Source of the DNA: an uncultured Desulfobulbaceae bacterium
Lineage (GTDB): Bacteria; Desulfobacterota; Desulfobulbia; Desulfobulbales; CALZHT01
Direction: 5' to 3'
DNA: 64,000 nucleotides
Assembly (NCBI GenBank): GCA_945787445.1
Contig: CALZHT010000024.1
Location: 2,398-66,397 of the forward strand
Below are positions 7,957 to 29,753 of the stretch, piece after piece; the first letter of the stretch is position 1, and every line of letters begins with the position of its first letter. A program made the translations under genes and the position numbers. The notes below the pieces were generated by a model. It did not search any database. It worked only from the letters and a program-made list of their open reading frames with translations, and was not told the DNA's origin.

Positions 7957-9420
7957 CTACTCCATGATAAAAGACTGGATGGCTGGTATTTCTGCTTTAA
8001 TCCAGTCTCTTACGTCTTGATCCAAGATATTTTCTGCCGGGGAATCCAGAACCTGTTTAACATAGGCGGTTGCCCGCTGCCAGGCGTCGGCGGAGCCTGC
8101 ATTCTGCCACTGTGAGCGGGTGTCACGGTCACTGAGTTGTGGGCGGTACTGCTCGGTACGCATATACTTTCTGGTATGTCTTGAGGAGACAAAATGACCG
8201 CCAGGCCCTGCCTTTTTAATTTCATCAAAGGCAATGGTCCGGTCGGTGACTTCGATTCCTTCCACGGCTCGCATTACCATGCCGATTATCTCATTATCGA
8301 CAACCAACTTGTCAAAAGACGCTGTCATGCAGAATTCGACAAAACCGGCAGCGTCATGAATAAAATTAGCCCCGGCCAGAGCAACCAGGGTTGAGGTGAT
8401 AGCTGATTCATAACCGGCCTGGGCATCAATCACTTTGGAGTCGGTCATACCGGCGGTTGCATAAAACGGCAGCTTATAGAACTGGGCCATCTGAGCCCCT
8501 GCCGCGTTCATCAAACCCATCTCAACAGCGCCGGACAGGTATTTCATGTCACGCAGATCGGTGATTGATGATATACAGCCGTAAATAGCGGGACAGCCGG
8601 AATTAAAAAGCTGGGTCATGATGATGCCGGCCAGGGTGTCGACATTCTGGACGACCAAGTTGCCGGCCAGGGTAATAGGGGCGGTGGCGCCGCACAAAGG
8701 TTCGGCAGGCACCACAATCGGGATTGAATTTTTGGCCGCTTCCACCGCCAGCATGCCATAGCTTTCATCAAGCTTAAAGGGACTAATTGGGCAGGCAACC
8801 ATGGAGATGAATGGCTTTTGGCGCAAAGCTTCAGGCGAACCGGCGATTTTTTCAGCCATGTGGATGACATTACGCACCCCATCCACGGTATAAACGCCGC
8901 CCATGATATGTTTGTTGGTGCTGTTTAAGGCAGCGCCAAAACGGTTTACATCAATTTCTTCCACCGGCAGATCGCTGGGATAGACGTTCAACATGTAAAA
9001 GTGGATGTTGTTCAGACTCTCCACCATCCGAGCCATATTCCTGACGTCTTTGAGCTGTGCACGCCGAGCAGTAGCACTGCCGGCCTCCTGAACATTCAGA
9101 GCGGTGCCGCCTGTGCCCATGTAGACCTTGGTTCCGCCTATTACAAGGTCATGTTCACCGAAAGGATCTCTGCTGTGTAGAACAATCGATTCAGGGACTT
9201 CTGCCAGAAGCCTTTTAACCTGATCGGCTTTTAGTTTAACTATATTTGTTTTATGATCAATCTCGGCTCCGGCCTCCTGAAAAGCGGCAAGGGCCTCAGG
9301 GTAATTAACTTGAATGCCGACTTCCTCGAAGACCTGCATGGAAGCCTGATGGATCTTGACAATATCTATTTCTGTCAGTGGCTTATAGGCGCCACCGTGA
9401 AGACCTTTTCTCGATTTCAT
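7957..9420 (-). CDS. MttB-superfamily methyltransferase (non-pyrrolysine), paralog 1
   Basis: 487 aa, homologous throughout to the 5610-7142 product. No amber codon. Confidence 0.8.
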   Translation of the reverse strand: MKSRKGLHGGAYKPLTEIDIVKIHQASMQVFEEVGIQVNYPEALAAFQEAGAEIDHKTNIVKLKADQVKRLLAEVPESIVLHSRDPFGEHDLVIGGTKVYMGTGGTALNVQEAGSATARRAQLKDVRNMARMVESLNNIHFYMLNVYPSDLPVEEIDVNRFGAALNSTNKHIMGGVYTVDGVRNVIHMAEKIAGSPEALRQKPFISMVACPISPFKLDESYGMLAVEAAKNSIPIVVPAEPLCGATAPITLAGNLVVQNVDTLAGIIMTQLFNSGCPAIYGCISSITDLRDMKYLSGAVEMGLMNAAGAQMAQFYKLPFYATAGMTDSKVIDAQAGYESAITSTLVALAGANFIHDAAGFVEFCMTASFDKLVVDNEIIGMVMRAVEGIEVTDRTIAFDEIKKAGPGGHFVSSRHTRKYMRTEQYRPQLSDRDTRSQWQNAGSADAWQRATAYVKQVLDSPAENILDQDVRDWIKAEIPAIQSFIME

Positions 9421-9479: not shown

Positions 9480-10247
9480 CTAGTTGATTGTTTTAGCAGG
9501 ACTGCGTCTGGCGAGACAGTCCTTTTTAAAACAGTAGAAACAAGGGTTGTGTATTTTTGTCGTCGGCCCCCTCCCTTTCGGGTAGAGACCAAAAACAGCA
9601 GAAATTGATTTGCGTGGTGTCATCAGCGAACTTTTGTCCAGTGTCACACCAATGGCTCCGGCATCTACGAGCGAAAAGAGCTTGTGTTGCTCTGTTACAT
9701 GCCAGTCGCAATAACCGGGGCTGAAACGGATCCCAGCGGCAGTATGCACTTGGTGAGGTGAAAATTTCCGGTCAAAACCGGATTGAAATCTTTCAGCAAC
9801 AGATTCAACTGCTCCGGACCCCAAGGCATCACAGGTATAGGCATTAGCAATTTTGCCCTGATCCATCAGCTGCTCGACCTTCATATCAATTTTTCTGCCG
9901 ATGGTAGCAACAAAACAAACCAGCTGTTCTGCGCCGGTCATGGCTCTAGCCATCTTATGGCTTTTTAAAGTGAGCCCCGAGACAAATTCAATCTGGTCTT
10001 TTTCAATCGCAGCAATAGGAAAAACTCCCCAAACAACCCTTGGATGCAGCAATCGATACACTCCTTCGTGCATCTGCTGCAGTCGGTTTCTTGTCGAACG
10101 GGTTAAACTGCCGGCTTTTTGTCGACCGAGTAGCCTTTTGACGAAATCCATATCAAACTCCGGCTCATAATCTGCCAGTAAAGATGTCGCCTGGATGGAG
10201 GGCTCTATGAGGCTGACAGTTGATCTTATTTTGTTGGTCTGTTCCAT
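9480..10247 (-). CDS. Methionine-synthase activation-domain-like (Met_synt_B12 fold) protein with a C-terminal Cys cluster; putative corrinoid-cycle accessory protein
   Basis: RFSPGYCDWHVTEQHKLFSL resembles the MetH AdoMet-binding activation-domain core (..SPGYP.CPDH..K....LL). C-terminal CFYCFKKDC. First gene of the minus-strand cluster. Confidence 0.45.
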   Translation of the reverse strand: MEQTNKIRSTVSLIEPSIQATSLLADYEPEFDMDFVKRLLGRQKAGSLTRSTRNRLQQMHEGVYRLLHPRVVWGVFPIAAIEKDQIEFVSGLTLKSHKMARAMTGAEQLVCFVATIGRKIDMKVEQLMDQGKIANAYTCDALGSGAVESVAERFQSGFDRKFSPHQVHTAAGIRFSPGYCDWHVTEQHKLFSLVDAGAIGVTLDKSSLMTPRKSISAVFGLYPKGRGPTTKIHNPCFYCFKKDCLARRSPAKTIN

Positions 10248-10998
10248 ATTCTTTTTTTTGTTATTTGTAGGTTTTGAAAAACATCCGGGTACTTCCTATT
10301 CCTCTATCTCTGCTAATGTTGTTCGCTATTAGCGACTAAATCACTAGAAATCGGCGACCGATTCGCATAATTGAAACACTTCATTCTATAGGTGGATACT
10401 ATGCGTGTGGGAATCGCTGGCTATGGAAAAAGCTCGATTGGAGGGTTGAATAATTCGACTTTAAATATCTTAATAAGATTGATAATCATTAATCTGTCAA
10501 CTCCGAGGAATAATAGTTTTTATATGAAATCGTGTTACTATAACATTGTGCATAGAAATAACAAGTTGCATAGAAATAACAAGTTGCATAGGGATAACAT
10601 TCTTGTTGGTGAAAGCCAACTCCACACCCTAATTAATGATTACTTTGGTGGGAATTTCAAGCAGTTAAAAGGAAAAATGAAGTTCTTGGAAAGAGAGAGA
10701 AATGAGGATAAGCAGGAGGGTGCTGAAGAAGGGGGGAAAGTTTTAGCTGTGGAAAAGTACGTTTTAGCTATCATTATCTTTAATAAGATCAAAGTCAATA
10801 TTTGTTGCCATTATCTTGAATCGTGCAACTGATGGTCGAGTCATCACTTCCTTGCCACCATCTGAATTCGCTAAAAATGGCAACTCGTTCAATATGTAAT
10901 GTGGTTATGAAAGGTCATTTTTTTCAAAATGTCCTGGACAAGCTGCAATATAGAAACATTGACTTTCATTGTGGACAAACTCTTAGGGAGGTATATGG

Positions 10999-11150
10999 AC
11001 TCTATTCTTACCAGCAAGAGTCAAGCAAAGACGCGACCCCTTTTTTCTTGAGTCAAGCAAAGACGCGACCCCTTTTTTCTTACTTTTTTTTACTTACCAT
11101 TTTTGATACCAGCAAGAGTCAAGCAAAGACGCGACCCCTTTTGTAGTCAA
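10999..11150. repeat. Three direct copies of a 28-34-bp unit (ccagcaagagtcaagcaaagacgcgacccctttt) abutting the truncated IS30 gene
   Basis: Direct repeats read at 11008-11045, 11049-11080 and 11104-11141 with irregular spacing. They lie adjacent to an AT-rich island (10390-10990) that also carries 2x aataacaagttgcatag. Confidence 0.6.
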
Positions 11151-11460
11151 TAAAAAGACGCTGTGATATTTCTTCCGGTGACCATTGTTTTCTAAGCCTT
11201 GCTTCCACATACCGTACCAGACGCAGATTTTTCTTTCTGCGGTAATGCCGTGCCTTGCAAACTCTCTTTTTAGCTAAAGGTTGGCTCCAGTCATACCAAT
11301 AGATAGCGATTGGATATCGTGAATTCGCTCGTTTCAGTTCGCGGCTGATTGTTGAGTGGTGACGATTCAAGCGTCGTGCTATTTCTCGCAAACTAAATCC
11401 AGCTACCTTTAAATGGCTGATGACATATCGTTCTCGTTCGGTTAAATGGGTGTAGGACAT
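11119..11460 (-). pseudogene. IS30-family transposase, N-terminal HTH fragment only (113 aa of an expected ~340)
   Basis: MSYTHLTERERYVISHLKVAGFSLREIARRLNRHHSTISRELKR is the IS30 HTH_38 N-terminus. The ORF terminates where the tandem repeats begin. Confidence 0.65.
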
Positions 11461-11619
11461 GATGGGGCTCCTTCTGGCTTTGAGTTGGTCGTGCTTCTCA
11501 ATATACCAGAAACCCTGTCATGTCCTGTTGTTAACTCAAATGGTGCACTTTGAACTTGAATCTACCCTTCCTTGACCCCTTCCCAGACCCCTTCACTTCA
11601 TTCATTACTTTATGGTGTT

Positions 11620-12360
11620 CTATAATTTTGCAACTTCCATTCCCGCCTCTTTCCAGTCGGCGAAAACAGCCTGATTGATGTTCTTGTAGCCGAGTTTCAT
11701 CAATTTCCGGTAAGCGCTGTAGCTGCGGCCGCCGGAGTTGCAGTAGACGATTATCCTTTTCTTTTTGTCGAGAACGCTCGATTGCGAGGCAAAGGTGGCC
11801 ACCGGAATATTGATTGACCCTGGTATGCGGCCCTCCTGGAACTCTTCCGGATCCCGGACATCGACTACCGTGAATGTGTCGGCGCCGCTTTTCATCAGGG
11901 CATTGAGGTCGCCGGGAGAAATTGTTATGGTCTCAATGCGCTTCTCGTAATCCGGCCCGGTGTAAATCGGGAATCCCTTTTCCTCCCAGACCGGCATGCC
12001 CTCGGCATAGACAAAGATATTTTCATAGCCGATCTCCATGGCCTTCTTAGCTGCTTTTTTACTCTTGCCGCATTTGACGCCATTGCAATAAAAAACGATT
12101 TTGGCCGACTTATCCGCCGGCAGATGGGAGACATACGTATCCCACTGTTTGACCGGGATATTGATCGCCCCTTTGATGTGGACCTCCTGGTATTCCTCGG
12201 GATTCCTGGCATCGACCACGGTTATCTGTGCGCCTGAATCAAGGAGGTTTTTCAGCCCATTGGTGTCAATGACCCGGTAGCCTTCAATTGATTTAGCAAA
12301 AACGCTTGCCGCCATGACTGCCCAAAAGATGAATGCAAATAAAACTTTTTTCTTTCTCAT
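11620..12360 (-). CDS. Secreted tandem-rhodanese-domain sulfurtransferase
   Basis: Signal peptide followed by two rhodanese modules with active-site CNGVKCGKS and CNSGGRSYSA loops. Confidence 0.8.
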   Translation of the reverse strand: MRKKKVLFAFIFWAVMAASVFAKSIEGYRVIDTNGLKNLLDSGAQITVVDARNPEEYQEVHIKGAINIPVKQWDTYVSHLPADKSAKIVFYCNGVKCGKSKKAAKKAMEIGYENIFVYAEGMPVWEEKGFPIYTGPDYEKRIETITISPGDLNALMKSGADTFTVVDVRDPEEFQEGRIPGSINIPVATFASQSSVLDKKKRIIVYCNSGGRSYSAYRKLMKLGYKNINQAVFADWKEAGMEVAKL

Positions 12361-12916
12361 GATTTACTCCTCTCCGGTTGATTTGATAATCGTGATAAAC
12401 GACCTGACTTTAATGTGTCATTTCTGCAGCCATGGTCACCAGCATGCTGCAAAACTCCCCATGAAACGACTTAAAGACGAAACGTCGCATCAATAGTGAA
12501 GGAGTCACAGCCGGATCCGGCGGACCGCCTGGACAAAACACAATTTGATCGAGTAAATACGACAGCTTCAATCTTCAATGATCTGATGCATCCCATGCCT
12601 TACATTGGCAGGCCCGGCACCCTTTGCGATCTCTTGATGACATGAAGCCCTGAGAAGAGCTACTTCAGGAAGGGAATCAAAGGAATAGTGCCCGCCGTTA
12701 GCACACCCGGACCGGGTGGCTCCTTAAGGCACTTGGTTCAAAATTTTTGGTATATAATTGCAAACGTTTCCATGTAACCTATGTGATTGATGCTCCGTTT
12801 CGACCATTTAATAAAAAGTGCCCGATATGTCAAATAGGAAAAAACTATAAAACAGTCCGGGTGAATTTTTATTTCCTGTATCAGGAAAGCCATGCAACAT
12901 GGCTTTAGCAAATAAA

Positions 12917-12950
12917 AAGGGATTCAACCGAATTGGTTGAATCCCTTATC
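12917..12950 (-). terminator. Rho-independent terminator immediately 3' of the tRNA-like element
   Basis: Minus-strand read GGGATTCAACCAATTCGGTTGAATCCC followed by TTTTTATTT. Confidence 0.6.
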
Positions 12951-12955
12951 AATTG

Positions 12956-13005
12956 TGGTGACCGGGGCGAGAATCGAACTCGTACAGGGACAAGCCCCGA
13001 GGGAT
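12956..13005 (-). other. tRNA-like 3' element with T-arm, acceptor 3' strand and CCA but no matching 5' acceptor strand, D-arm or anticodon arm. Likely a tRNA 3' remnant (old att site) or a small tRNA-like RNA.
   Basis: Minus-strand read ...ACGAG-TTCGATT-CTCG-CCCCGGTC-A-CCA with a terminator right after. GACCGGG is absent in the preceding 180 nt, which run into katG. Confidence 0.3.
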
Positions 13006-13131
13006 TTTAAGACCTTTCAATTTCGATTAAAAAACTTTATTGATTTCAGTAAATTACTGATTTCAAATCAAAAGAGGCCTTATAAAATCGTAGATCGAAT
13101 TATTTATTTATAACTTTTTCATCTGCCAAAT

Positions 13132-15330
<2,199 letters not shown>

Positions 15331-15530
15331 TTACCTCCTGTTGTTAATATCTCTATAGTCAATACAATCGCCTATTTTTTATTTACAAGTTATCTGTCTT
15401 GGGTTGATCCTATAACGATATGTTTTGAAGAATCAACAAATCAAATTTTTTAGATAGATTATTATTTAATATTTATTCTTTTATAGGAATATTTCTTATC
15501 AAAGGATCAAAAAATATATGACCGATATTG

Positions 15531-15962
15531 TTAAGGTTGCCTTGCACATGCCTTACAAATTCCTTCAAGAACAGCATTTCTTCTGATTACTTTTCCCCAG
15601 CCAACAACGGCTTTTGGAACCTGAACCTCGTCAAAATGATCCCAGGTGAAATCTGTAATGGTTCTGCAACGGCTGCATACTACATGATGGTGTTTATCCA
15701 TTTTCGCCTCATAACGGGCCTGGCTTTCTATGGTCTGCACCCGAGTTATTAATCGGTGTTTTTCTAAAGTGGCTAAGGTTCTGTATACGGTATCGAGAGA
15801 AAGGGTAGGCAGTTTTTTTATGAGCCGTTTATAAAGCGTTTCAGCTGAAGGGTGATCTTCAGCCTGTGCAAGTTCTCTATAAAGCTCAAGGCGCTGATGC
15901 GTGACCTTCAGATCTGCTTCGCGACAGGCGTTTTCAAATTCTTTCATCAATTTTGACAAAGT
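15531..15962 (-). CDS. Fur-family regulator, PerR-like, directly upstream of katG on the same strand
   Basis: HHxxC....CxxC metal sites (HHHVVCSRCR; ICKACA) and a winged HTH. The shorter start MTLSKLMKEF was chosen, but the start is uncertain. Confidence 0.75.
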   Translation of the reverse strand, partial: TLSKLMKEFENACREADLKVTHQRLELYRELAQAEDHPSAETLYKRLIKKLPTLSLDTVYRTLATLEKHRLITRVQTIESQARYEAKMDKHHHVVCSRCRTITDFTWDHFDEVQVPKAVVGWGKVIRRNAVLEGICKACARQP

Positions 15963-16290
15963 CATAAAAAGTCTAAAAACCGAATTTGGTCGACGGGAGT
16001 TCATTAATTTATGAGCAGAATACCCGTCGGCGGAGTGCTTTTTACGAAGTCGACAATTTATACAGGTCAGCTTTTATCGGCTTCATGTTAGGATAATTTA
16101 GTAATTAGGAATTATTCTTGTTTAGTATATTATTTATTTGCCATCTATATGTCAACTTTTTTCCAAAAGATATTGTCTTACTCTCGAGTAAAGATGAATC
16201 ATATTAGTCATATCCAGAAACGTTTCAGCCCGGCATTCGTATTGATGCCAACCGTTAGGAAAATAACCACCATTTCATAACCAACTTTTG

Positions 16291-16365
16291 ATGAAATCGT
16301 AAAAATACGATTTCATCGATGTATTGCGTTGTAACTAGTTGAAATTGCATGGCACGTTAACCGCT
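16291..16365 (+). promoter_or_regulatory. Perfect palindrome (ATGAAATCGTA-AAAA-TACGATTTCAT, putative enhancer/UAS) followed 34 bp later by a sigma-54-type -24/-12 element TGGCAC-gttaa-CCGCT, oriented toward the AAA ATPase gene
   Basis: GG-N10-GC spacing is canonical. The same composite element recurs at 40495-40690 and, inverted, at 41247-41475. Confidence 0.5.
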
Positions 16366-16557
16366 TTCCAGACTTTTTACGGGTAGGTCAATGATTGATT
16401 CTGGATAACGTAAACGGGATTGTTTGTCAACAGGGGAGGAATTTCGGGTGTGGTTCCCATTACCATGAGAAGTCAAATGCAGGTTTTACCATTGGTGGAT
16501 AATTTGGTTTATATTTGGGTGCATATTTGTCAGGTAATACAAAAAGGAGCCGTTGTT

Positions 16558-16770
16558 GTGAACAAGAAAGGTGCGCAGAAAAAACACAAAGACATCTCAA
16601 CGATTGACCAGGAATCGAAAAGAACGCGTGGCTGGTATGTCAGGGTTCATCATTGCTGCAAGACCTTTGCGAAGTTTTTTTCTGATATGTGTTTATTTCG
16701 GGCACACCCGCTAAACTCGATACTTCGCAAAAGGGGATTTTTCTCCTATGCACGTGTTTTCGGGCAATGA
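16558..16770 (+). CDS. Small basic hypothetical protein (70 aa), possible first gene downstream of the sigma-54 promoter
   Basis: GTG start 8 nt after aaaaaggag. The product VNKKGAQKKHKDISTIDQESKRTRGWYVRVHHCCKTF... has no recognisable family. Confidence 0.25.
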   Translation: MNKKGAQKKHKDISTIDQESKRTRGWYVRVHHCCKTFAKFFSDMCLFRAHPLNSILRKRGFFSYARVFGQ

Positions 16771-16915
16771 CACTCTTTGTTGACATTGAAAAATGTGGCT
16801 TTTATATGTGCAAATGGAACATTAAAGTTCAAAGAGCTATCATAGTAAGAGCATAAAAGTTTGCGGGAATTTTTTATGAGAGTTCCCGCTTTATTATTTT
16901 CAAGCGGAGGGAAGT

Positions 16916-17995
16916 ATGGAATTAGCATACGAACACCTAGAACCGGAAGAGTGCTCAACCTCGATTTTTGAGCACTGCGGTCTTAAAATTGATCCTGAAC
17001 CAGCTAGAGAATTGTGGGAAAAGATCTTACAGCACAAGTGGGGCCTGTCCGAAAAACTGGGACGGGATGTGGGGACCAGGGTCGCTTGCGTTGATTTTAT
17101 CGAAAACATCGCACATTTGCATAATGATCACCACGACACCGAAAGTATCCAGCTGCTCAAGTCGCTTGGCGCCCGGATGATCGACCAGTCGATCTGGAAC
17201 ACTATCTCGGAATCTCAGCCTCCTAAACAGATCGTTAATAAGAGAATAATACTCCCGCTGACGGTGGCGGATCTCGCTCGCAAACATGCAGTGATTCCGC
17301 CCCGAACCCTGATCTTTTTCGGCCCCCCAGGGACCGGCAAAACTCATTTTGTCCAAGCCATCGCGGGGATACTCCAGTGGTGGTATGTTGAGGTCAGCCC
17401 CAGCACCTTGATGGCCGACGGAGAAGACCGTCTCGGTGCGAACCTGAAAAGATTGATGGAAAAAGCCGGCAGTTTGGATAAGGTCGTTCTTTTCATCGAT
17501 GAGTTCGAGGAGATTGCAGGGAGCCGGGATCAAGCCTCCCGAATCGACAAATCAATTACCAACGAATTTCTCAAACTGATACCTCTCCTCAAGAGTCAGG
17601 AAAGAAAGAACCTTTTGGTATGCGCCACCAATTATATTCAACAATTGGATGCCGCCTTATTGCGCCCCGGCCGTTTTGATTGCATCATCCCGGTTGGCGG
17701 ATTGGATGATCTTGGTCGCCGGACTATTTTCGAGCATTTTCTGGCCGACACCAATCATGGCAATGTGGATGTAGACAGAATCGTCTCGGTGATTGAGCTT
17801 TTTACTCCCGCCGACATTGAATACCTTTTCCAAAAGGTGAGACAAGTCGCTTTTGAAAGAGAATATGAAAACGGGGGTAACTATAGTGTTACGACGGAAA
17901 CCTTTCTGGAGATCATCCCTGAAGTCCCATCGACACTCACTCATGAAATCATAATGGAATTCGAACAAAATTGCGTCCAATATACTCGTTATTAA
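16916..17995 (+). CDS. AAA+ ATPase with a roughly 125-aa N-terminal domain of unknown function
   Basis: Walker A GPPGTGKT, Walker B LFIDEFEE, sensor-1/Arg-finger RPGRFD and an ggagggaagt RBS. Confidence 0.8.
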   Translation: MELAYEHLEPEECSTSIFEHCGLKIDPEPARELWEKILQHKWGLSEKLGRDVGTRVACVDFIENIAHLHNDHHDTESIQLLKSLGARMIDQSIWNTISESQPPKQIVNKRIILPLTVADLARKHAVIPPRTLIFFGPPGTGKTHFVQAIAGILQWWYVEVSPSTLMADGEDRLGANLKRLMEKAGSLDKVVLFIDEFEEIAGSRDQASRIDKSITNEFLKLIPLLKSQERKNLLVCATNYIQQLDAALLRPGRFDCIIPVGGLDDLGRRTIFEHFLADTNHGNVDVDRIVSVIELFTPADIEYLFQKVRQVAFEREYENGGNYSVTTETFLEIIPEVPSTLTHEIIMEFEQNCVQYTRY

Positions 17996-18039
17996 TACCT
18001 CACAAGCTCTTACAGTAAGGGGTATGCTGTCTTTTGGGA

Positions 18040-18078
18040 AAAACAAAAAAGGGGTTGTCCTCTTCAGGACAATCCCTG
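18040..18078 (-). terminator. Rho-independent terminator for the minus-strand two-component operon
   Basis: Minus-strand read GGGATTGTCCTGAAGAGGACAACCCC followed by TTTTTTTGTTTTT. Confidence 0.55.
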
Positions 18079-18617
18079 GCGGTACCCGGTGGAGGCAACC
18101 GGATTTGACCTGGCAGCGGTTTTACAATCGCTGCCAGATCCGTCTCATTGTTTTTCAATAACGAGGCTATGACCTCTCTTCTATTTCGACCTTCAAGGCG
18201 ATGTTTACCTCGTTGCCGGAGGAATCCTGGCCTTGATAAAACTTTATCTCAATCTCATGCGCATTGGCCGGGATCTGGACGGCGCAGATATAGTGATCGA
18301 AGCTGTGATTTTCGTGCTCGATCCTTGTCTCCCTGGTGATGAGGTATTTGCTGCCGCCAACCATGATGGAATAATTGGATTGATCAAAGGAATATGACGG
18401 GCGCCCCTCTCTTTCTATTTTTCGGTAGCGCCCAAATCCTGAGAACTCGGCAAGAGACCGGTCCGGCTCCTCACAAAACGCCTAAATTTGATGTTTTTTC
18501 TAATCAGATATTTCCATAAACTTTAGGCACTTCAAACTTTAGCGCACTTTAGGCACTGAAATGGCTCGCTCCTGTCCGGTATCATGACAAATTCTACCGA
18601 GGTCAGGTTATCTGAAA

Positions 18618-20021
18618 TTACTCGGCGTCACCTTTGTCAAAACCATACCTGTCCAATTTGTAGCGGAGGGCACGGTAGGTGATCCCCAGGAGTTCTGCGG
18701 CCTTGGTCTTGTTGCCCTGCGTCTCATCAAGCGCGCGGACAATCAGATACTTCTCAACATGCTCAAAATTATTATCCAAACGCAGGTTTTCACCAAAGGC
18801 AACTTCTTTTGCCAGTATATCTTCTCCGGAAAGATGAGGCAGGAGTTGCGAGGAATGGATCCATGGACCGTCTGTCATGATGACCGCTCTTTCAATTATG
18901 TTCTCCAGTTCTCTTACGTTTCCGGGCCAGTCATAGCTCATCAGCAACAGGATGGCTTCGGTGGTAAATCCTTTGATGTCCTTATTGTTTTCCTTGACAT
19001 ACTTTCTTAGTAAATGCTCCGCGAGTAGCGGGATGTCTTCTTTGCGCTCACGCAGAGGCGCAAGATAGATGGGCAGGACATTGAGTCTGTAGTACAAGTC
19101 TTCCCGGAAATTTCCTTTCTTTATTTCTTCGTACAGGTCCTTGTTAGAAGCAGCAATGACCCGGACGTCCGCACTGATGGTCTGGTTGCCCCCCACCCGT
19201 TCAAAATTTCTCTCCTGCAAAAAGCGAAGCAGGCTGACTTGTACACCTGCATCAATCTCCGAAACTTCATCGATAAACAAAGTCCCATTGTGGGCTGCCT
19301 CAAACTTTCCTATTTTGGTTGTTTGGGCTCCGGTAAAAGCGCCTTTCTCATAGCCAAAAATTTCGCTGGCCAGTAGGCTTTCCGGAATAGAAGAACAGGT
19401 CAGCGTCACAAAGGGACCATTTTTTCGCAGGCTGTTGTAGTGGATGGCGCTTGCTACCATCTGCTTGCCGGTGCCGCTTTCACCCAGGATCAAGACCGTG
19501 GCATTGGTCGCTGCAACCTTCTCAATATTCTGATAGACCTCCTGCATTTTGTAGCTTTTGCCGATGATGTTGCCAAATGAATGCCGTAAATAAAGCTCCT
19601 GGCGGAGCGTATCGATTTCCTGTTGCAGCCTTTTCTTTTCCAGAGCCTTTTCGAGGTATATGAGTAGTTCATCCAAATTCAACGGCTTGGTAAGGTAATC
19701 ATAAATGCCCCGTTTCATGGCATCGACTGCCTGCTGTATAGTGCCAAAGGCTGTCATGACAATAATCTGCACATCGGGCGCCTTTTCCTGCAGTGCATCG
19801 ACCAGGGAAAGATTGGACAACCCTTTCATTTTCATATCCGTGAGGATGACGTCAACAACAACTTCTGAAAGGAGCTCTATGGCCCGGTCGCCATTTGCCG
19901 CAGCATGCACTTCATAGCCGCGTCGGGTCAGGAAATCCGTTATCCCCTGGCGGAGATGGGCCTCGTCTTCAATGACCATAATGGCGCCCTTTTCTGTTGC
20001 TGTTTTTTCTACTTTATCCAT
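18618..20021 (-). CDS. Sigma-54-dependent response regulator (NtrC family: receiver + AAA+ sigma-54 activator + Fis-type HTH)
   Basis: Receiver with D54-equivalent (ILTDMKM), GESGTGK, GAFTGA and ESELFGYEKGAFTGA motifs, and a C-terminal HTH. Confidence 0.9.
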   Translation of the reverse strand: MDKVEKTATEKGAIMVIEDEAHLRQGITDFLTRRGYEVHAAANGDRAIELLSEVVVDVILTDMKMKGLSNLSLVDALQEKAPDVQIIVMTAFGTIQQAVDAMKRGIYDYLTKPLNLDELLIYLEKALEKKRLQQEIDTLRQELYLRHSFGNIIGKSYKMQEVYQNIEKVAATNATVLILGESGTGKQMVASAIHYNSLRKNGPFVTLTCSSIPESLLASEIFGYEKGAFTGAQTTKIGKFEAAHNGTLFIDEVSEIDAGVQVSLLRFLQERNFERVGGNQTISADVRVIAASNKDLYEEIKKGNFREDLYYRLNVLPIYLAPLRERKEDIPLLAEHLLRKYVKENNKDIKGFTTEAILLLMSYDWPGNVRELENIIERAVIMTDGPWIHSSQLLPHLSGEDILAKEVAFGENLRLDNNFEHVEKYLIVRALDETQGNKTKAAELLGITYRALRYKLDRYGFDKGDAE

Positions 20022-22383
20022 GACACATACCTCCTTTGACCGGCAGTTTCACGATAACACAGGTGCCTTTGCCGACCTCACTCTCTATTTCAATGGTGCC
20101 GTCATGCTGTTCAATAATCAACTGCGTCAAGGGCAGGCCGACGCCCATGCCTCCTTCCTTAGTACTGAAATGAAAGTCAAAGGCATGTCTGATCTCTTCC
20201 GGCGTTATCCCGCTGCCGCTATCAATCACCCTGATCACACTCCATTCTTTATCCCTCTGGAACTCTATCATGATTTCAGAGGAATCAGGCATGGCATCCA
20301 TCGCGTTTTGCAGGATGTTTGCAAGGGCCAGGGTGAGCCGCTCTCGATCACACTCGATACATATTTGTTCAGGGGGTGCTGCAATTTTTACTTCCCCGCT
20401 CTTCATTTCCAGGGCCGTTCGAACTCTGTACAAAGCGCCATGCACAATATCCTCAAGAATGCACGGAATCGGTTTCAACTTTGTTTCGTGCGGGACCATG
20501 GATCGGACAAATTTTTCCAAGAAGCGATTCAATCGCTGAATTTCAGAAGCAATAATTGAAAAGTATTGTGCAGGGCCATTACTTGCAGTGGCCTCTATTC
20601 TGCATTCGTCTTCAAGATTTTTTAAATTCACATCAATGGAAGCAAGAGGATTTCTGATCTCATGGGCCAACCCGGCCGCCAACTGGCTCACGGCCGCCAG
20701 TTTTTCTGATACGACCAGACGCCTTTCCAGACGCTTCTTTGCCTGATTTGCCGCTATCACCCCTGTCATGTCCTGGGCCACACAGACGATACCCTCAATT
20801 TTTCCCCCTTCATTGCGCATGGCGGAACTTGAGAAAGAGACGGGAACTCTCCGGCCATCCTTGCCGATATAGGTCATTTCAGCGGAACGGATATTACATT
20901 GCTTCGCGCCATTCTCAACAGGTAGCCCATGCTCAATAATTTTTTCAACCGGCCGGCCGATAAGTTCCTCTTTCTCGTATCCCAGTAACAGGCAGATAGC
21001 ATCATTCACCGTACGGATGGTGCCGGAGGGAGAAATAACGAAGAGGGTGTCGCACATGGTGCTGAGGATATCGTCGGTATATTCTTTTGCACTGATAATT
21101 TCCTCTTGTGATTGCTGCAGGGTTTCGGCCATTTTATCAAAGGACCGGGCCAGTTGTCCCAACTCATCCTTGGCCTGTAGGCCGATGCGGTGGTCGAGCT
21201 GTCCCATACCGACCATCTCTGTCCCCTTGGTGAGCTGTCTGAGGGGCATGATAACTCCTCTGACCAGATTGAACATGAAGAAGCCGATTATGGAAAGCAC
21301 GATACCTGACACAAATACCCCTTCCAGCCCCGCCATAGTGGTCATTGTCAGCAGCCTTTGCATCGCTTGGTCTATGTCTTGGTGGGCATACTCTATCTCC
21401 TGCCGGACATTGCGCAACAGGGTCAGTTCAACGAAAGGATGAAGCTTGGTTTCAACAAACGCCATCAGTTCTTGCGGTTGATCGTTCTTCTTTTTGGTAA
21501 TGGTTTGGGCAGCCATAAAATGGAAGGTTTGGTGATGTTTCTCAAGATCGACAATCCTTTGCAAGGTGTTTCCATTAGCGCTTTCCCAGCCGAGTGCGTT
21601 GCGATTTGTCAAGGCTTTGGTCAAGGCCTGCATGTTAGTTTTTGCATCCAGACCATGTTCTTCGAATGCTCCCAGCTCTCTTTCCTGACCCGACACCTGA
21701 TAATCCATTAATTCCCGGAACTGCATGCAAATGTTCACAAACACCTTGTCCGCCCTGAGGAAATATTCAATGGAGTTACGGGCCACATTGATATGCTTGA
21801 TAACTCTTCTGGACCCCCAGGGAGCATTCCCTATTTTCAGCAGGACATTATTGAAAGCAGTATTAACATCGTTCAATTCATTCGTCTCAGCCGCATCAAT
21901 CTCCTGAGACAACACATGGTTGATCCAGCGTTCCACCGTTTCTTCCAGGATGTCGTAGGCAGCTTCCTTTTCCCCGGCATCGGCAAGGTTAAAGGCCTGA
22001 TCCACTGTTTTTTTGACTTCACTGTACTTACGCTCTACTTCTGCAGCCAAGGCAATATCAAATTGTTCATCTTCTCCGAGCTCGCTCCGTCTCTCTATTG
22101 CTGCCACCCAGGCAGCGTGGGCCTCATCAACCAGAGCGGCTGTTTCATCAATGGCTCTTTTCTTCTGATTATTTTGATAAAAAAGATAGTCCATGGTCCG
22201 AGTGATATGCGTGACAATGGCTGCCCGTGTTTTCAGCACTGCATGCAGTTCGTCAAGGGCGGCTGCGGCAGAGTGTATCTGCAGGTGGGCCTCTCTGCTG
22301 TCCCAGAACATTTTGGCCGCAAACAGGATAAACAGCATGAGAATAACAGATAATATGACGACAAGTTTCCCTTTAATGCTCAT
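20014..22383 (-). CDS. Sensor histidine kinase (periplasmic sensor, HAMP, PAS, HisKA, HATPase_c)
   Basis: N-terminal TM, long periplasmic region and a second TM. H-box LAHEIRNPL and G-boxes DSGSGI / GGMGVGL. Overlaps the RR gene by 8 nt. Confidence 0.85.
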   Translation of the reverse strand: MSIKGKLVVILSVILMLFILFAAKMFWDSREAHLQIHSAAAALDELHAVLKTRAAIVTHITRTMDYLFYQNNQKKRAIDETAALVDEAHAAWVAAIERRSELGEDEQFDIALAAEVERKYSEVKKTVDQAFNLADAGEKEAAYDILEETVERWINHVLSQEIDAAETNELNDVNTAFNNVLLKIGNAPWGSRRVIKHINVARNSIEYFLRADKVFVNICMQFRELMDYQVSGQERELGAFEEHGLDAKTNMQALTKALTNRNALGWESANGNTLQRIVDLEKHHQTFHFMAAQTITKKKNDQPQELMAFVETKLHPFVELTLLRNVRQEIEYAHQDIDQAMQRLLTMTTMAGLEGVFVSGIVLSIIGFFMFNLVRGVIMPLRQLTKGTEMVGMGQLDHRIGLQAKDELGQLARSFDKMAETLQQSQEEIISAKEYTDDILSTMCDTLFVISPSGTIRTVNDAICLLLGYEKEELIGRPVEKIIEHGLPVENGAKQCNIRSAEMTYIGKDGRRVPVSFSSSAMRNEGGKIEGIVCVAQDMTGVIAANQAKKRLERRLVVSEKLAAVSQLAAGLAHEIRNPLASIDVNLKNLEDECRIEATASNGPAQYFSIIASEIQRLNRFLEKFVRSMVPHETKLKPIPCILEDIVHGALYRVRTALEMKSGEVKIAAPPEQICIECDRERLTLALANILQNAMDAMPDSSEIMIEFQRDKEWSVIRVIDSGSGITPEEIRHAFDFHFSTKEGGMGVGLPLTQLIIEQHDGTIEIESEVGKGTCVIVKLPVKGGMCHG

Positions 22384-22425
22384 TGAGCTACCTCACTTTC
22401 CTGTTTTCTTACAAAAATAGATTCA

Positions 22426-22836
22426 TTAAAAAAATAAGGGTATCCTTCCTGTGGTAAAGGAAGGGGGAAGAGGCACACCTGATGCTGCCATCAGGGCCGT
22501 TGCTGCGATCCTATCCCCGGCAAGGCTGGTGGAACGGAAGGTGTTAACAACCCTGGCCCCTGCAATTTCCAGTGCTCCGGCATAGCTTATGCATAGGGGA
22601 GTTATGGATCTCAGGACATACAAATCATGCCGGGGCCGGATCTCGGCGATATCCAGTGGTCCACCCTCTGGTACAATCAGATCGACCTGAGTTCCCATTT
22701 CCCGAAGGCGGGTAATGGTTTCGGCCGTCACCGGACTGATATGGGGAACACGGGTCTCAGGTTCCAGTGCGTTAAGCAGAAATACGATTCTCATGATATA
22801 CATCTCCTTGGTCAGTAATGCGCTCCAGAAGGTCAT
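22426..22836 (-). CDS. Pre-ATP-grasp (RimK N-domain-like) only protein, a short paralog of the upstream ATP-grasp gene
   Basis: 136 aa resembling the first 110 aa of the 22772-23671 product but lacking the nucleotide-binding half. Overlaps that gene's 3' end. Confidence 0.4.
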   Translation of the reverse strand: MTFWSALLTKEMYIMRIVFLLNALEPETRVPHISPVTAETITRLREMGTQVDLIVPEGGPLDIAEIRPRHDLYVLRSITPLCISYAGALEIAGARVVNTFRSTSLAGDRIAATALMAASGVPLPPSFTTGRIPLFF

Positions 22837-23671
22837 CGGCGATGTGGTCGGCCACTCCCGGTATGCCGGTGAAGTTGGGAAATTCGTTTACTTCAATGAC
22901 CGCCAACCCATCCGGGGTTTCGATGGTGTCGACGCCGTAAATATCGAGGCCAAAGGTTTTGCCGCATTTTAAAGCCAGATCAGCCATCGCCCCGTCCGCG
23001 TGGACCTGTTGCGACGCTGCATTTGGATCACTATTGAAAGGAGCAGGCTTACGCACCGCAAAAACTTTCCGGCCGCATACATAGAGTTTCAAATCATATC
23101 CATAGTTAGGAAGATAATGTTGGGCCAGAACCATGTCTGTACCCCAGTGAATATCGCTCAGGTCCTCCGCTTTCCGGATGAAGCGCAAACCCTGACTATT
23201 ATCCCCATAAGTCGCTTTCAGGATGAGCGGAAAATTTTCCTTTGGCAACCTGGCAAGGACGGAGACGTCCTCGGCAAGATAGGTTGGGGGGCAGGGCACG
23301 CCTGCCCGCGCAAGGGCGATGGCCATTTTCGCTTTGTCCCTGACCTGCTGCGTGGCTGTGTGGCTGTTGATGGCCGGAATCCCTGCGACTTCCGCATAGC
23401 GAAGCATGGCCAGACCCAAAGGTTTGCGGTTTCTGGAAATGATGATCTCATAGCTGTTGAGATTGAGACAGGTGCCTTCTTCTATAGAGAGAAAGCCTGA
23501 TTCAGGATCAAAACAACAGCCTTGCGGGCAAATGATATCAGTGGCCACATCTCTGGCTTTGAGAGCCCGGATGACAGCGCCGGGCAAGTTCTGCCCGAGG
23601 TAGCGTCTTTCCACGATCACGCCGATTTTTATCGGATCGTTACTAAAATGAATGATATTGCTGGATGTCAT
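22772..23671 (-). CDS. ATP-grasp family protein (RimK/GshB-like ligase)
   Basis: ATP-grasp fold motifs (KATYGDNSQG; EVNEFPNF). Start set at MTSSNII (ATG 23671) behind a ccaaggagg RBS, because the longer ORF-track start runs into the conserved leader. Confidence 0.7.
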   Translation of the reverse strand: MTSSNIIHFSNDPIKIGVIVERRYLGQNLPGAVIRALKARDVATDIICPQGCCFDPESGFLSIEEGTCLNLNSYEIIISRNRKPLGLAMLRYAEVAGIPAINSHTATQQVRDKAKMAIALARAGVPCPPTYLAEDVSVLARLPKENFPLILKATYGDNSQGLRFIRKAEDLSDIHWGTDMVLAQHYLPNYGYDLKLYVCGRKVFAVRKPAPFNSDPNAASQQVHADGAMADLALKCGKTFGLDIYGVDTIETPDGLAVIEVNEFPNFTGIPGVADHIADDLLERITDQGDVYHENRISA

Positions 23672-23677
23672 GGCAAG

Positions 23678-23801
23678 AAACCTCCTTGGACAGCGACATA
23701 GAATGAGCAATGTCCCTCATGTGCCATCGCTCTTACTCCTTGTCTTTATGACCTAGTAGATTGCCATATCCGTGCCAAACTGTAACTAATTGATATTGTA
23801 G
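23678..23801 (-). promoter_or_regulatory. Conserved ~125-nt leader with a sigma-54-type promoter (minus strand TGGCAC-ggata-TGGCA at 23762-23777) and RBS, upstream of the ATP-grasp gene. Paralogous to 24793-24913.
   Basis: About 80% identical to the region upstream of the lipoprotein gene. GG-N10-GC spacing is canonical, and the RBS AAGGAGG is conserved. Confidence 0.5.
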
Positions 23802-23998
23802 TGTTTTGTGTTTTTAGTTTTTGCTTGCCATGAAGGTTGTTTCATAGCGTCACCCTCTGATTATGAAAAAGATTTCATAGTTGGGTTGAGAAACGAAACC
23901 CAACCTACCTTGCTGAAGTATATCAATAGTTAGAAATAAAAAAGGGCGGGAAGAGACCCGCCCTTGATGACATCCGCATTTATGCGGTTCAATATATG

Positions 23999-24787
23999 TT
24001 ATTCCCTGTTGGTGCTATGCAGCAAGATTGCCGATTTTATGTCATATCCGTGATAGCTTCCTTCGACTGCGTGTTTGAGTTCATGCGGCAGTGAAGGCAG
24101 TCCGATGTCTTTGTAATGCATTTGCGCCCAGTAATAGCTGTCTGCGTAATTTCTCCAGCTTCCATTATTAGTCAACGAAGCCAAATCTTCTACATGCATA
24201 ATTGTATGAGGCGGGGTAAGGGGGCCTGGATATCCCGGACTGGTGCGATGGTTATAAAGCGCGAGCCACATGGTGGTGGCGCTGTATTTTATATACCCCC
24301 TGCACATGCCGTTTGCGCTTCGGTCGCAGGGGAATCCCCAATGGTCGACGATTACTATGGTGTAATTGCTCAAGGCGCTTTGTATTTCTGCCGACAATTC
24401 CGGATAAAGAACTTCGGTTTCCGCTACCCGCTTAATTATCATTTGCTCGACCATGGCGTTGATTTCTCCTCTGTCCGTATATATCCAGCCGCCGTAAAAC
24501 AGCCCGTGTTCATACAATGATGGATCTATCCGTACGTCGCTTCCAGCCAGGTTCACGGACGAGACAGGTATGTCATATGTATATGTAATGTGAGATTTCA
24601 CTTCCCCCGGTCCAGGTCCCGAATCTCCACCTCCACATCCGGCCAGAACTAACAACGATAGACATCCCAACAAACCCAACACTATCAGATGTCTTTTATG
24701 CATGTGCTGCCTGGGATATAGTTTTTCAACGATTTCGACGACTTTCATGGAAATGCTATCGGATTTTACTATGTTTATAAATTTCAT
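23999..24787 (-). CDS. Lipoprotein of unknown function with an HExxH-like motif (HELKH)
   Basis: Lipobox LLVLAGC after MHKRHLIVLGLL. Start set at MKFINIV (ATG 24787) behind an aaggagg RBS. Confidence 0.55.
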   Translation of the reverse strand: MKFINIVKSDSISMKVVEIVEKLYPRQHMHKRHLIVLGLLGCLSLLVLAGCGGGDSGPGPGEVKSHITYTYDIPVSSVNLAGSDVRIDPSLYEHGLFYGGWIYTDRGEINAMVEQMIIKRVAETEVLYPELSAEIQSALSNYTIVIVDHWGFPCDRSANGMCRGYIKYSATTMWLALYNHRTSPGYPGPLTPPHTIMHVEDLASLTNNGSWRNYADSYYWAQMHYKDIGLPSLPHELKHAVEGSYHGYDIKSAILLHSTNRE

Positions 24788-24792
24788 GGTAA

Positions 24793-24913
24793 AACCTCCT
24801 TGGACAGTGACATAGAATGAGCAGTGTCCTGCACGTGCCATCACTATTACTCCTGCCTCTTATTACATAGTGGTGCCATATCCGTGCCAAACTGTAACTA
24901 TTTGATATTGTAG
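24793..24913 (-). promoter_or_regulatory. Second copy of the conserved sigma-54 leader (minus strand TGGCAC-ggata-TGGCA at 24874-24889), upstream of the lipoprotein gene
   Basis: See 23678-23801. Confidence 0.5.
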
Positions 24914-25442
24914 AATGAAATGTTTTTTACCTGACAAAACATGAAGAATGCTTCATAGCTTTACGCGGCAACTATGAAAAACATTTCATAGTGGGGATGA
25001 GGAAGAGGGAACTGCTACTTGCTGAGGAAAATAACTACAGGAGGCATTTAGGCGCTCTGCGCCAAAAGATAACAAATAAATTTGTTATGCTGTGTTTTAT
25101 ATTGTTAAATCAAGCAATTACTTGCCATAAATTTAGCTCTGACTTTAATAGCGGCGTAGGCGCGTTTAATAAGCCGGCTTCACTGATATAGTAAACGAGA
25201 AGCAACTGGGTAATTGTCTTGCTTCAAGATAATTTCCGGCTCAGCCGGCTTATGTATGGAACCAAAGGAATAAAGGGATTGCGGGATAAAAAAAAGCAGA
25301 GCCTTTATGACTCTGCCTTCTTGGAAACGATGAATTCCAAATTATTTCTTCTTTCTTCTGATTGTCGTTCCTGCCAGGACGATTATTTTTTTATCGTTGA
25401 GTCTTTTCTTTATATGGCATCTACTAGTAGCGCCGGATTCTA

Positions 25443-26048
25443 TTATTCCGAACTGCATAATTTGCACGGTCTGAACCCCGCCTTTTTAGCTTCCTTTAGG
25501 CTATTGAAAACAGCCGTACAGGTTGAGCTGTTGTAATTGTTGCACGTCCGGAGATGGAAAACATGGGTGTTTTTATTGCCGAAATACGCTTGCTCGGCAG
25601 GGGAGGGCGCAGACTTTTTCGATTTACTTTTCTTGGCAGGATTAATCTTCTGTTCTTGAAAATATGAAATATGGCCGATTTCCTGTTGTAATAACTCCTT
25701 GTGAATTTTTTTGGCGAGATTGCCTACGGAATATTTATCCAATGATTTTAGTTCCTCCATCCGGAACTGAACTTTCCCGTTTTTCCTTTTCAAATCTTTT
25801 GACTTGGTATCAGGCTGATAGATCCCTTTAATAAATGTATCAAGTCGAGCCAATTCAACACCAAACAGGATTTTATTTATTCTGTTTTTGCTCAGTTTGC
25901 GGAGCTTGCCGTCACAGCGACAGAGAGCCGAACCTTCATTGTTATAATTAAAGCTGATGATGTCTATTTTTGAGGCTTCGTGAAAAAATTCATCACAGAG
26001 AATATTTTGTTTATCCTTAATCTTTTTGAAGCGAAGCAATGGTTCCAT
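25443..26048 (-). CDS. Hypothetical protein with a C-terminal Ada-type zinc-binding-like domain
   Basis: C-terminal ...HVFHLRTCNNY...NSLKEAKKAGFRPCKLC resembles the Ada N-domain metal site (H.PSCP....F.S.EEA...GYRPCK.C). Confidence 0.45.
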   Translation of the reverse strand: MEPLLRFKKIKDKQNILCDEFFHEASKIDIISFNYNNEGSALCRCDGKLRKLSKNRINKILFGVELARLDTFIKGIYQPDTKSKDLKRKNGKVQFRMEELKSLDKYSVGNLAKKIHKELLQQEIGHISYFQEQKINPAKKSKSKKSAPSPAEQAYFGNKNTHVFHLRTCNNYNSSTCTAVFNSLKEAKKAGFRPCKLCSSE

Positions 26049-26124
26049 TTTTACCTCCTTTTTTCAAAACGGTTATTTACAGGATTTTCAAGGGAGTTCA
26101 TCCGGTCAAATTATCCTTTTATTC

Positions 26125-26604: not shown

Positions 26605-26628
26605 AATGCACCTCCGAATATTAATTGG

Positions 26629-27045
26629 TTATTCCTGATTCTTTTTTAATTTTTTTTCCAGATCTGCAAACAGGTCCTGTTTCTTTTTGTCTAATTCGGC
26701 TTGAACCGACTCAACCTTATTGGTAATATCCTGCCTGCTCTTCCGAAACTTTTCAATTTCTTTGTCAATACCGCTTTCTTTCTTTTCTTTTGAAATCTCT
26801 TCAAGCTTCAGGTGGTTTCCCACGAAGAGCTTAACATTGTAGGGTGTTTCGGTGACAATAACCGCACCTGTTTTACTTAGTTTCCCGGCTACAGTGGAGC
26901 CCCAGTCCAGGGAGCGGGAAAGCAATTGGCAAACCTCCTCCACAGAAGGGGGAGCGCCTTTCTGATGGGCAAGGACCCGTATTGCCGCAACAAAAAGATG
27001 CGCTTCGTCATAGAAGTCAATAGTTTTACCCATAGCGATCACCAA
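26629..27045 (-). CDS. Hypothetical protein with a coiled-coil C-terminus
   Basis: ORF with a K/E-rich tail and no recognised motif. Confidence 0.35.
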   Translation of the reverse strand: MVIAMGKTIDFYDEAHLFVAAIRVLAHQKGAPPSVEEVCQLLSRSLDWGSTVAGKLSKTGAVIVTETPYNVKLFVGNHLKLEEISKEKKESGIDKEIEKFRKSRQDITNKVESVQAELDKKKQDLFADLEKKLKKNQE

Positions 27046-29744: not shown

Positions 29745-29753
29745 TAGATACTT

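Follow-up and report, generated by a model that had tools for sequence, protein, structure and literature searches.

We analysed a 64-kb stretch of DNA from an uncultured Desulfobulbaceae bacterium (contig CALZHT010000024.1; the 64,000 nucleotides are called the window below), in which three intergenic sites carry related sequences resembling sigma-54 promoters. One of them (S1) lies upstream of a small open reading frame (ORF) and an AAA+ ATPase gene, and the other two (S2 and S3) flank the gene of an RNA-binding protein. An original prediction from the sequence had described a composite sigma-54 promoter module, reused at three sites, with an NtrC-family activator encoded nearby. The three copies and the genes beside them are as follows.

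16289–16390, plus strand: S1, short form, 102 bp (alignments; nhmmer proximal-block model, E = 2.6e-24)
40495–40688, plus strand: S2, long form, 194 bp, directed at the RRM gene, whose start codon lies 270 nt downstream (alignments, nhmmer)
41473–41244, minus strand: S3, long form, 230 bp, beginning 20 nt past the stop codon of the RRM gene, to which it is antisense (alignments)
40958–41224, plus strand: RRM_1 RNA-binding protein gene, 88 aa (PF00076, E = 7e-23), between S2 and S3, which stand inverted
16558–16770, plus strand: 70-aa ORF downstream of S1, with a GTG start and the ribosome-binding site (RBS) AAAAAGGAG; residues ~6–44 match the N-terminus of an AP2-domain family
16916–17995, plus strand: AAA+ ATPase gene (domain search)

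Alignment revealed pairwise identities of 80–82% among the copies, motif-free spacer DNA included, and nhmmer recovered them at E = 1e-20 to 1e-24. S1 and S2 are 82% identical over 107 aligned nt, and their downstream genes (the AP2-like ORF and the RRM gene) are non-homologous. The 17-mer TTGAAATTRCATGGCAC is found exactly at all three sites, and a search for it with up to 3 mismatches returned 5 matches, against 0.56 expected by chance. Between the long forms, the left 70 nt are identical at 58 of 70 positions without a gap, the right 60 nt at 51 of 61 with one gap, and the promoter core at 32 of 33, whereas the middle holds 47 gap columns. S1 aligns as the long form lacking ~115 bp of the stretch from the inverted repeat to the promoter-proximal block; only the long forms have a second conserved block and the variable middle. 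Because spacer without any recognisable motif is conserved as well, the copies are best read as duplicates of one repeat, not as convergent promoters or members of a regulon, and the three sites are almost certainly homologous copies of a single non-coding cassette, placed intergenically. The similarity stops ~15 nt past the predicted start, with no common transcript body beyond it; since the predicted start site falls within the right terminal repeat, the cassette would be a promoter unit and nothing more.

Each copy is built from the same kinds of part, including an inverted repeat, a motif resembling an integration host factor (IHF) site, a −24/−12 element and a right terminal inverted repeat.

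16290–16317, unstranded: S1 inverted repeat, 12-bp perfect arms GATGAAATCGTA and TACGATTTCATC with an AAAA spacer; putative enhancer-binding protein (EBP) site or hairpin
16330–16349, plus strand: S1 IHF-like motif TGTAACTAGTTGAAATTGCA, abutting the −24 element; on the opposite strand it is TTTCAACTAGTTA, to be compared with the IHF consensus WATCAANNNNTTR
16350–16365, plus strand: S1 −24/−12 element TGGCACGTTAACCGCT, GG-N10-GC; predicted start ~16376, placed by the usual −12 to +1 distance
16374–16390, minus strand: S1 right terminal inverted repeat TGACCTACCCGTAAAAA, which repeats the left end TGATGAAATCGTAAAAA (16289–16305) in inverted form and spans the predicted start
40500–40520, unstranded: S2 inverted repeat AAATCGTA-AAAAA-TACGATTT, 8-bp arms, centre ~−164
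40521–40545, plus strand: S2 block 2, GTCTGCTTCGCGGACGCGTTAACCG, identical to the S3 block at 24 of 25 positions
40629–40648, plus strand: S2 IHF-like motif TGTAACTGGTTGAAATTACA (motif search)
40649–40663, plus strand: S2 −24/−12-like element TGGCACGTAACCGCT, GG-N9-GC (N4 spacing), outside the results of the exact N5 and TGGCAC-N7-GC searches
40672–40688, minus strand: S2 right terminal inverted repeat TGATGATTCCGCAAAAA, 1 mismatch to TGA-N6-CGTAAAAA; folding pairs both ends
41449–41467, unstranded: S3 inverted repeat ATTCGTA-AAAAC-TACGAAT, 7-bp arms, centre ~−200
41423–41447, minus strand: S3 block 2, GTCTGCTGCGCGGACGCGTTAACCG (alignment)
41285–41304, minus strand: S3 IHF-like motif TGTAAGTCCTTGAAATTACA (motif search)
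41269–41284, minus strand: S3 −24/−12 element TGGCACATTAACCGCT, GG-N10-GC; predicted start ~41258, antisense to the RRM gene
41244–41260, plus strand: S3 right terminal inverted repeat TGACATTTCCGCAAGAA (plus-strand reading), 2 mismatches to TGA-N6-CGTAAAAA

The sigma-54-type elements are not equivalent. The −24 GG and the −12 GC stand exactly 10 nt apart in S1 and S3 but not in S2, and TGGCAC-N5-CCGCT, which had been proposed for all three sites, occurs only twice, at 16350 (plus strand) and at 41284–41269 (minus strand, antisense to the RRM gene), the S2 spacer being N4. Sigma-54 does not tolerate a changed −24/−12 spacing; S2, with its GG–GC distance 1 nt short, is therefore probably inactive as a sigma-54 promoter. 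Exact TGGCAC-N7-GC sites number 5 in the 64 kb, against 1.8 expected, and in four of them (S1, S3 and two comparison promoters, A and B, described below with the regulator operon) exactly 3 nt separate TGGCAC from the end of the motif TGTAACNNNTTGAWATT. This motif, which contains or nearly contains the IHF consensus, is found 8 times in the window, where 0.10 would be expected; five of these occurrences (at S1, S2, S3, A and B) show the same 3-nt offset. The candidate IHF-site sequence reads TGTAACNNNTTGAAATTACA. Sigma-54 appears to be in use in this genome, as the window encodes an EBP with a GAFTGA motif and holds two canonical TGGCACGGATATGGCA promoters; no RpoN-box ORF was found within the window. 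The sequences are real and far from random, the sigma-54 anatomy of S1 and S3 is credible, and the chances that the two are active promoters appear evenly balanced. A reading as sites for an ECF sigma factor (TGTAAC ... CGT) was rejected on account of its overlong 19-nt spacer and because promoters A and B carry the motif in inverted form.

The inverted repeat upstream of these elements is well formed in S1 and reduced in the long forms. The 26-mer ATGAAATCGTAAAAATACGATTTCAT was located at 16291–16316, as the original prediction had it, and is the single occurrence in the window even at 3 mismatches; it is not the perfect palindrome described there, since its 12-bp arms (16290–16301 and 16306–16317) enclose a central AAAA that is not self-complementary. 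The element TGGCACGTTAACCGCT likewise stands where it had been placed, and the gap between it and the 26-mer is 33 nt instead of 34. The recurrence of the module on both sides of the RRM gene holds in so far as S2 and S3 are homologous copies; they keep the inner arms only (8 and 7 bp), the common core of all copies being AWTCGTA-N5-TACGAWT, and ~164 and ~200 nt separate their repeats from the predicted starts, not the 34 bp that had been claimed. The S1 repeat is centred at ~−72, so that the three positions fall in the range of 70–200 bp upstream that is usual for an activator site. With arms set at 10 bp or more and loops at 3–8 nt, the 64 kb contain 3 perfect inverted repeats, that of S1 among them, against a shuffle mean of 0.6. 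Relative to S1 and S2, the S3 hairpin shows one compensatory two-sided change from A:T to T:A that keeps the pairing. In the long forms, S2 block 2 holds a small imperfect inverted repeat (GTCTGC-N3-GCGGAC) and includes the string CGTTAACCG, which is present in the promoter too. We also tried the palindrome as a Fur/PerR box, the divergent neighbour being a Fur-family gene, and rejected this reading, as by eye the sequence is unlike a 7-1-7 box.

The limits of the cassette have a form of their own. Similarity starts and ends at inverted copies of TGA-N6-CGYAAAAA, and an exact search for TGA-N6-CGTAAAAA gave 4 matches in the window, namely the three left ends and the right end of S1. Imperfect terminal inverted repeats thus stand at the exact ends, as in a MITE (miniature inverted-repeat transposable element). 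We consider it possible, though only tentatively, that the cassette is or was mobile.

Two classical MITE families are present elsewhere in the window, with two copies each. One is 185 bp long with 27-bp near-perfect terminal inverted repeats (TAGGAGCCTGTCGGAGAACTC...; 29563–29747 and 47328–47507), and the other ~145–165 bp with terminal repeats of ~38 nt (TATACACAGCG...; 27098–27242 and 47098–47262). Further dispersed repeats lie at 44808–44911 and 47822–47973, and at 38366–38429 and 44541–44604. One dispersed-repeat pair, inverted, brackets the genes for a sucrose-phosphate phosphatase and a sucrose-phosphate-synthase-like protein (44899–47094), a layout that is the same as at the RRM gene, with a gene between inverted repeats. 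A 27–36-nt repeat (GAGTCAAGCAAAGACGCGACCCCTTTT) is found three times within 135 nt of an intergenic region (11009–11142, plus strand).

At the RRM locus, comparison with relatives bears on both S2 and S3. The RRM protein has relatives in Desulfurivibrio, Desulfobulbus and Electrothrix at 62–70% identity. The RRM gene and an 86%-identical orthologue (locus L086) have a common conserved leader of ~110 nt, with a sigma-70-like candidate at a conserved position that is weak in the window; a consensus scan returned no plus-strand sigma-70-like site upstream of the RRM gene. From the RRM stop codon to the conserved upstream region of the following helicase gene the distance is 35 nt in L086 and 265 nt here. 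L086 lacks S3 at the orthologous position; a 16-nt stretch there is identical to the outer end of S3 at 12 of 16 positions. The cassette is absent from five orthologous RRM loci (L086, and the 74–76% orthologues L087–L089 and L105), and TGGCA[CT]-N5-NNGC was found within 700 nt upstream in 0 of 80 further RRM loci. A DEAD-box (RhlE-like) helicase gene with a long conserved upstream region follows the RRM gene (40958–43107), and in L087 an RRM gene, a DEAD-box helicase gene and a cold-shock-domain gene are clustered, an arrangement that suggests a cold-shock-type RNA-chaperone locus.

On the side of S1, the small ORF (GTG at 16558, good RBS) and the AAA+ gene lie downstream as had been described. 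The homology of the 70-aa ORF to the AP2-like family is lost after FFSD, and family members have 150–200 aa; as the match ends there, the ORF appears truncated and may be a remnant or a short paralogue. A word-indexed search for homologues returned the ORF itself only, and a scan of viral contigs returned nothing. The AAA+ protein is 70–87% identical to orthologues across Thermodesulfobacteriota. Three of these orthologues (L082, L085 and L090), with unrelated genes upstream, have the same sigma-70-like promoter and a leader with a hairpin and U-tract; in the window, TTGACA stands at 16781 and a terminator-like hairpin at 16863–16899, between S1 and the gene. The leader hairpin shows compensatory changes across orthologues. 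No sigma-54 element was found upstream of the AAA+ orthologues, and the cassette is absent from four orthologous AAA+ regions. Having its own conserved promoter and leader, the AAA+ gene would form a separate transcription unit. The leader itself (16781–16915, plus strand) has a 12-bp hairpin with its U-tract immediately before the RBS and no Rfam match, and it may be an attenuator or another cis-regulatory RNA. Divergent from S1 lie the genes of a KatG-type catalase-peroxidase (731 aa) and a Fur-family (PerR-like) regulator (13132–16004, minus strand), and the string TTCGTAAAAA is found at 16039–16048 (minus strand), just upstream of the start of the Fur-family gene.

The explanation that we favour, with about even chances of being right, is a sigma-54 promoter cassette, lineage-specific and possibly MITE-like, that has been duplicated as a whole, and not a regulon of three promoters. 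Read 5' to 3', it would consist of a terminal repeat, a hairpin-type repeat, in the long forms a block and the middle, the IHF-like site, TGGCAC-N5-CCGCT and the other terminal repeat. A sigma-54 activator would bind the inverted repeat at ~−72 (S1) or ~−200 (S3), an IHF-like protein would bend the DNA at ~−32 to −48, and the activator would then remodel the sigma-54 holoenzyme held at −24/−12, with transcription starting near 16376 (plus strand) and 41258 (minus strand). The output of S1 would run through the truncated AP2-like ORF and meet the hairpin and U-tract ahead of the AAA+ gene, and that of S3 would be an RNA antisense to the RRM gene, which may dampen it through convergent transcription or pairing. 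S2, having lost 1 nt of the invariant −24/−12 spacer, is probably dead. The copies would have arisen by duplication or mobilisation of the entire cassette, as a mobile promoter, and not by independent promoter evolution. No specific role as activator can be read out for the adjacent NtrC-like protein.

Several observations weigh against this explanation, and the first group concerns the promoter. The −12 region is CCGCT and not TTGCW, so that it agrees at GC and W and has C in place of both Ts; in the same comparison, the window's clear sigma-54 promoters have TGGCA. The distances from repeat to promoter (−72, −164 and −200) are mutually out of helical phase. S2 has a spacing that sigma-54 would not tolerate, yet is otherwise well conserved, which selection on promoter function alone would not lead one to expect. 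Of the cassettes near the RRM gene, S3 is the sole intact one and is antisense to the gene, and S1 faces an apparent gene remnant. The IHF-like motif is oriented in the cassette opposite to that at promoters A and B, and it is found away from sigma-54 promoters as well (10653, 34088 and 60676), two of these three copies lying near sigma-70-type or other regions; for this reason it is probably a general bending-protein site.

The second group concerns origin and spread. The terminal repeats are weak, with ~11–15 of 17 positions matching; no target-site duplication was found, the flanks being T- and A-runs of unequal length without a consistent direct repeat; and a transposase with matching ends is absent from the window. 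Given the 12-of-16 vestige in L086, the difference at S3 could be a deletion there instead of an insertion here. Scans for the exact core pattern gave 0 matches in GTDB representative genomes and JGI metagenomes. A relaxed pattern gave 13 matches in metagenomes, none with flanking similarity, and these are accordingly chance matches. Models of both cassette halves (nhmmer) detected no further copy in ~105 loci, one of which (L081, GCA_945787035.1) is 99.9% identical over 17.9 kb to 10084–27995 of the window; the count of three copies for the source genome refers to the 64-kb window.

Many of these points would be expected if the cassette were an inert, decaying repeat, a former MITE or a recombinational duplication in which the likeness to sigma-54 promoters is a relic or incidental and no copy drives regulated transcription. 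We hold this to be a real possibility, though a lesser one. The ends resemble terminal inverted repeats and the size is typical of MITEs, which are plentiful in the window; the copies stand in both orientations, one of them in a position of no evident function, at the 3' end of a gene; the spacer is broken in S2; S1 faces a gene remnant; and the orthologous loci manage without the cassette. Decay does not, however, readily account for a promoter core that is identical at 32 of 33 positions between S2 and S3, against ~80% overall and a middle full of insertions and deletions, nor for palindrome pairing that survives a double change, nor for an IHF-like motif whose 3-nt offset recurs in two unrelated sigma-54 promoters of canonical type.

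The model put forward in the original prediction, in which three sigma-54 promoters (for the AAA+ gene, the small ORF and the RRM gene) form the regulon of an NtrC-like regulator and kinase (18618–22383) that binds the palindrome, fares less well and is unlikely. The regulator genes and the two promoters with which we compared the cassette are the following.

18618–20021, minus strand: NtrC/AtoC-like sigma-54 activator (REC, AAA+ with GAFTGA, HTH_8), the only EBP in the window
20014–22383: HAMP-PAS-HisKA-HATPase kinase (domain search)
23762–23878, minus strand: comparison promoter A, TGGCACGGATATGGCA (23777–23762), heading an ATP-grasp (RimK-like)/kinase/EBP operon
24874–24989, minus strand: comparison promoter B, a paralogue of A, TGGCACGGATATGGCA (24889–24874), upstream of a 281-aa gene

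The EBP and the kinase are real, with their domains confirmed, and lie 0.6 kb beyond the AAA+ gene. They are the last genes of a minus-strand operon under promoter A, and promoter B fronts the preceding gene. Promoters A and B each have two TATGAA-N6-TTCATA enhancers, an adjacent perfect IHF consensus (TATCAATTAGTTA and TATCAAATAGTTA) and a conserved 80-nt leader downstream (repeat D5). As these promoters head its operon, the NtrC-like regulator is probably autoregulated. Its enhancer motif differs from that of the cassette (AWTCGTA-N5-TACGAWT), which speaks against the regulator as activator. S1 alone among the copies has ATGAA/TTCAT, the half-sites of the operon enhancers, in its outer arms, at N16 rather than N6; the two spacings are one helical turn apart, which would suit the regulon model. 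These outer arms are, however, missing in S2 and S3, and ATGAA-N4-18-TTCAT pairs are common, with 7 in the window against an estimated ~3 by chance. The AAA+ gene, with its own conserved promoter and leader and a terminator-like hairpin upstream, is not supported as a target; S2 is mis-spaced and S3 is antisense. What stands of the proposed module is the set of parts common to all copies (inverted repeat, IHF-like site and −24/−12 element), carried by duplicates and not by independently reused sites. Proximity is the sole link of the regulator to the cassette, and on that footing we rate it quite improbable that this neighbour is the cassette's activator.

Least probable of the alternatives is a structured element, either a small RNA or leader or a single-stranded DNA hairpin mobilised by an IS200/IS605-type transposase (PATE-like), with the palindrome as its hairpin: folding z-scores of −2.0 to −2.9, the compensatory pair change and an IS200-like Y1 transposase gene (60161–60589) with a 21-nt cassette match (TGTAACTCCTTGAAATTACAT) just beyond the right end of its element would fit, but the z-scores are modest and come mainly from a single hairpin, the Rfam 15 covariance models gave no gathering-level match in the cassette copies and only noise at E <= 5, the similarity between the copies ends too soon after the predicted start for a common transcript body, the 21-nt match is the IHF-like motif that also stands beside unrelated promoters, and the end hairpins of the IS200 copy are unrelated in sequence.

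The IS200-like element itself spans 59990–60675 (plus strand), with its Y1 transposase (PF01797, E = 2e-43) and inverted AAGTGCCTAAA motifs at its bounds, and the solitary 21-nt copy of the cassette's IHF-like motif adjoins its right end at 60676–60696. We considered and rejected derivation of the cassette from this element, because the 21-mer in question falls beyond the IS ends and represents the general IHF-like motif. At 33931–34009 and 34592–34670 (minus strand), 661 nt from each other, two c-di-GMP-I-GGC riboswitch aptamers were detected, scoring 59.6 and 68.1 bits; a 128-aa ORF follows one of them, and an IHF-like TGTAAC motif with a sigma-70-like promoter lies upstream of the first. 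A match to Rfam PYLIS_3, the mttB pyrrolysine insertion sequence (8349–8448, minus strand, 67 bits), implies a pyrrolysine-containing trimethylamine methyltransferase gene in this genome.

Enhancer-dependent sigma-54 promoters with activator and IHF sites are well known, for example nifH, glnHp2 and Pu. The favoured promoter cassette resembles them in its TGGCAC at −24, in GG-N10-GC (S1 and S3), in the inverted repeat 70–200 bp upstream and in the IHF-like site between, and the host genome appears likewise to be of the EBP-rich deltaproteobacterial type. It differs in the −12 sequence CCGCT, in an IHF-like site that abuts −24, and in being duplicated spacer and all, with one copy antisense and one at N4. 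IHF-dependent sigma-54 promoters have been described in Desulfovibrio (orp operons) (PMC3897727).

Among repeats that carry promoters, putative mobile promoters (PMPs) have their largest reported family in Desulfurivibrio alkaliphilus (Matus-Garcia et al. 2012, PMC3488235). By alignment, the cassette agrees with what defines a PMP family, that is, upstream regions of at least 50 nt with at least 80% identity before non-homologous genes of one genome; as with PMPs, at least 50–100 nt are shared, and D. alkaliphilus is a relative. Whereas PMPs are defined regardless of sigma factor, the cassette appears to be of sigma-54 type with its own enhancer, and it also stands at a gene's 3' end. As the exact-pattern scans gave no match in GTDB representative genomes, we found no evidence that the cassette is the D. 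alkaliphilus PMP family. The closest mobile analogue would be the Correia elements (CREE) of Neisseria, which are MITEs bearing promoters and IHF sites (PMC2649163, PMC2229807); ERIC and other small mobile sequences are comparable (PMC2229807, PMC3184786). With these the cassette has in common 100–230 bp of non-coding DNA, inverted-repeat ends, an internal IHF-type site, long and internally deleted forms, and an intergenic position in either orientation from which it could supply promoters to genes or flank them. Correia elements differ in that their termini bear pieces of sigma-70 promoters and that they have a TA target duplication, whereas the cassette has weak terminal repeats, no duplication seen, three copies and an internal sigma-54-type promoter. 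Intragenic and antisense sigma-54 sites are known from enterobacteria (Bonocora et al. 2015, PMC4591121; Samuels et al. 2013, PMC3844500), and S3 is similarly a well-formed sigma-54 site antisense to a gene. The enterobacterial sites lie in coding sequence and are conserved with the gene, whereas S3 is intergenic, repeat-borne and absent from orthologous loci.

The comparison carries a caution for annotation, in that motif evidence alone is insufficient for placing the genes of the AAA+ and RRM proteins in a sigma-54 regulon or under the adjacent two-component system. Should the cassette have no function, it would be just another lineage-specific intergenic repeat of a MITE-rich genome. A more far-reaching view, which we regard as doubtful, is that of a 'sigma-54 MITE', a transposable enhancer-dependent promoter that would hold activator site, bending site and −24/−12 element between its terminal inverted repeats and would wire its insertion sites, sense or antisense, to the signal of one EBP. 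In this window, a cold-shock-type RRM gene would thereby come under antisense control. Sigma-54 promoters are silent without their activator, and a mobile copy would for this reason be an unusually 'safe', tightly switchable portable promoter. If the cassette is functional, it would represent, in compact form, regulatory rewiring by copying a complete enhancer-dependent promoter instead of evolving one, and S3 would offer a natural example of antisense transcription gated by an activator and directed against an RNA-chaperone gene.

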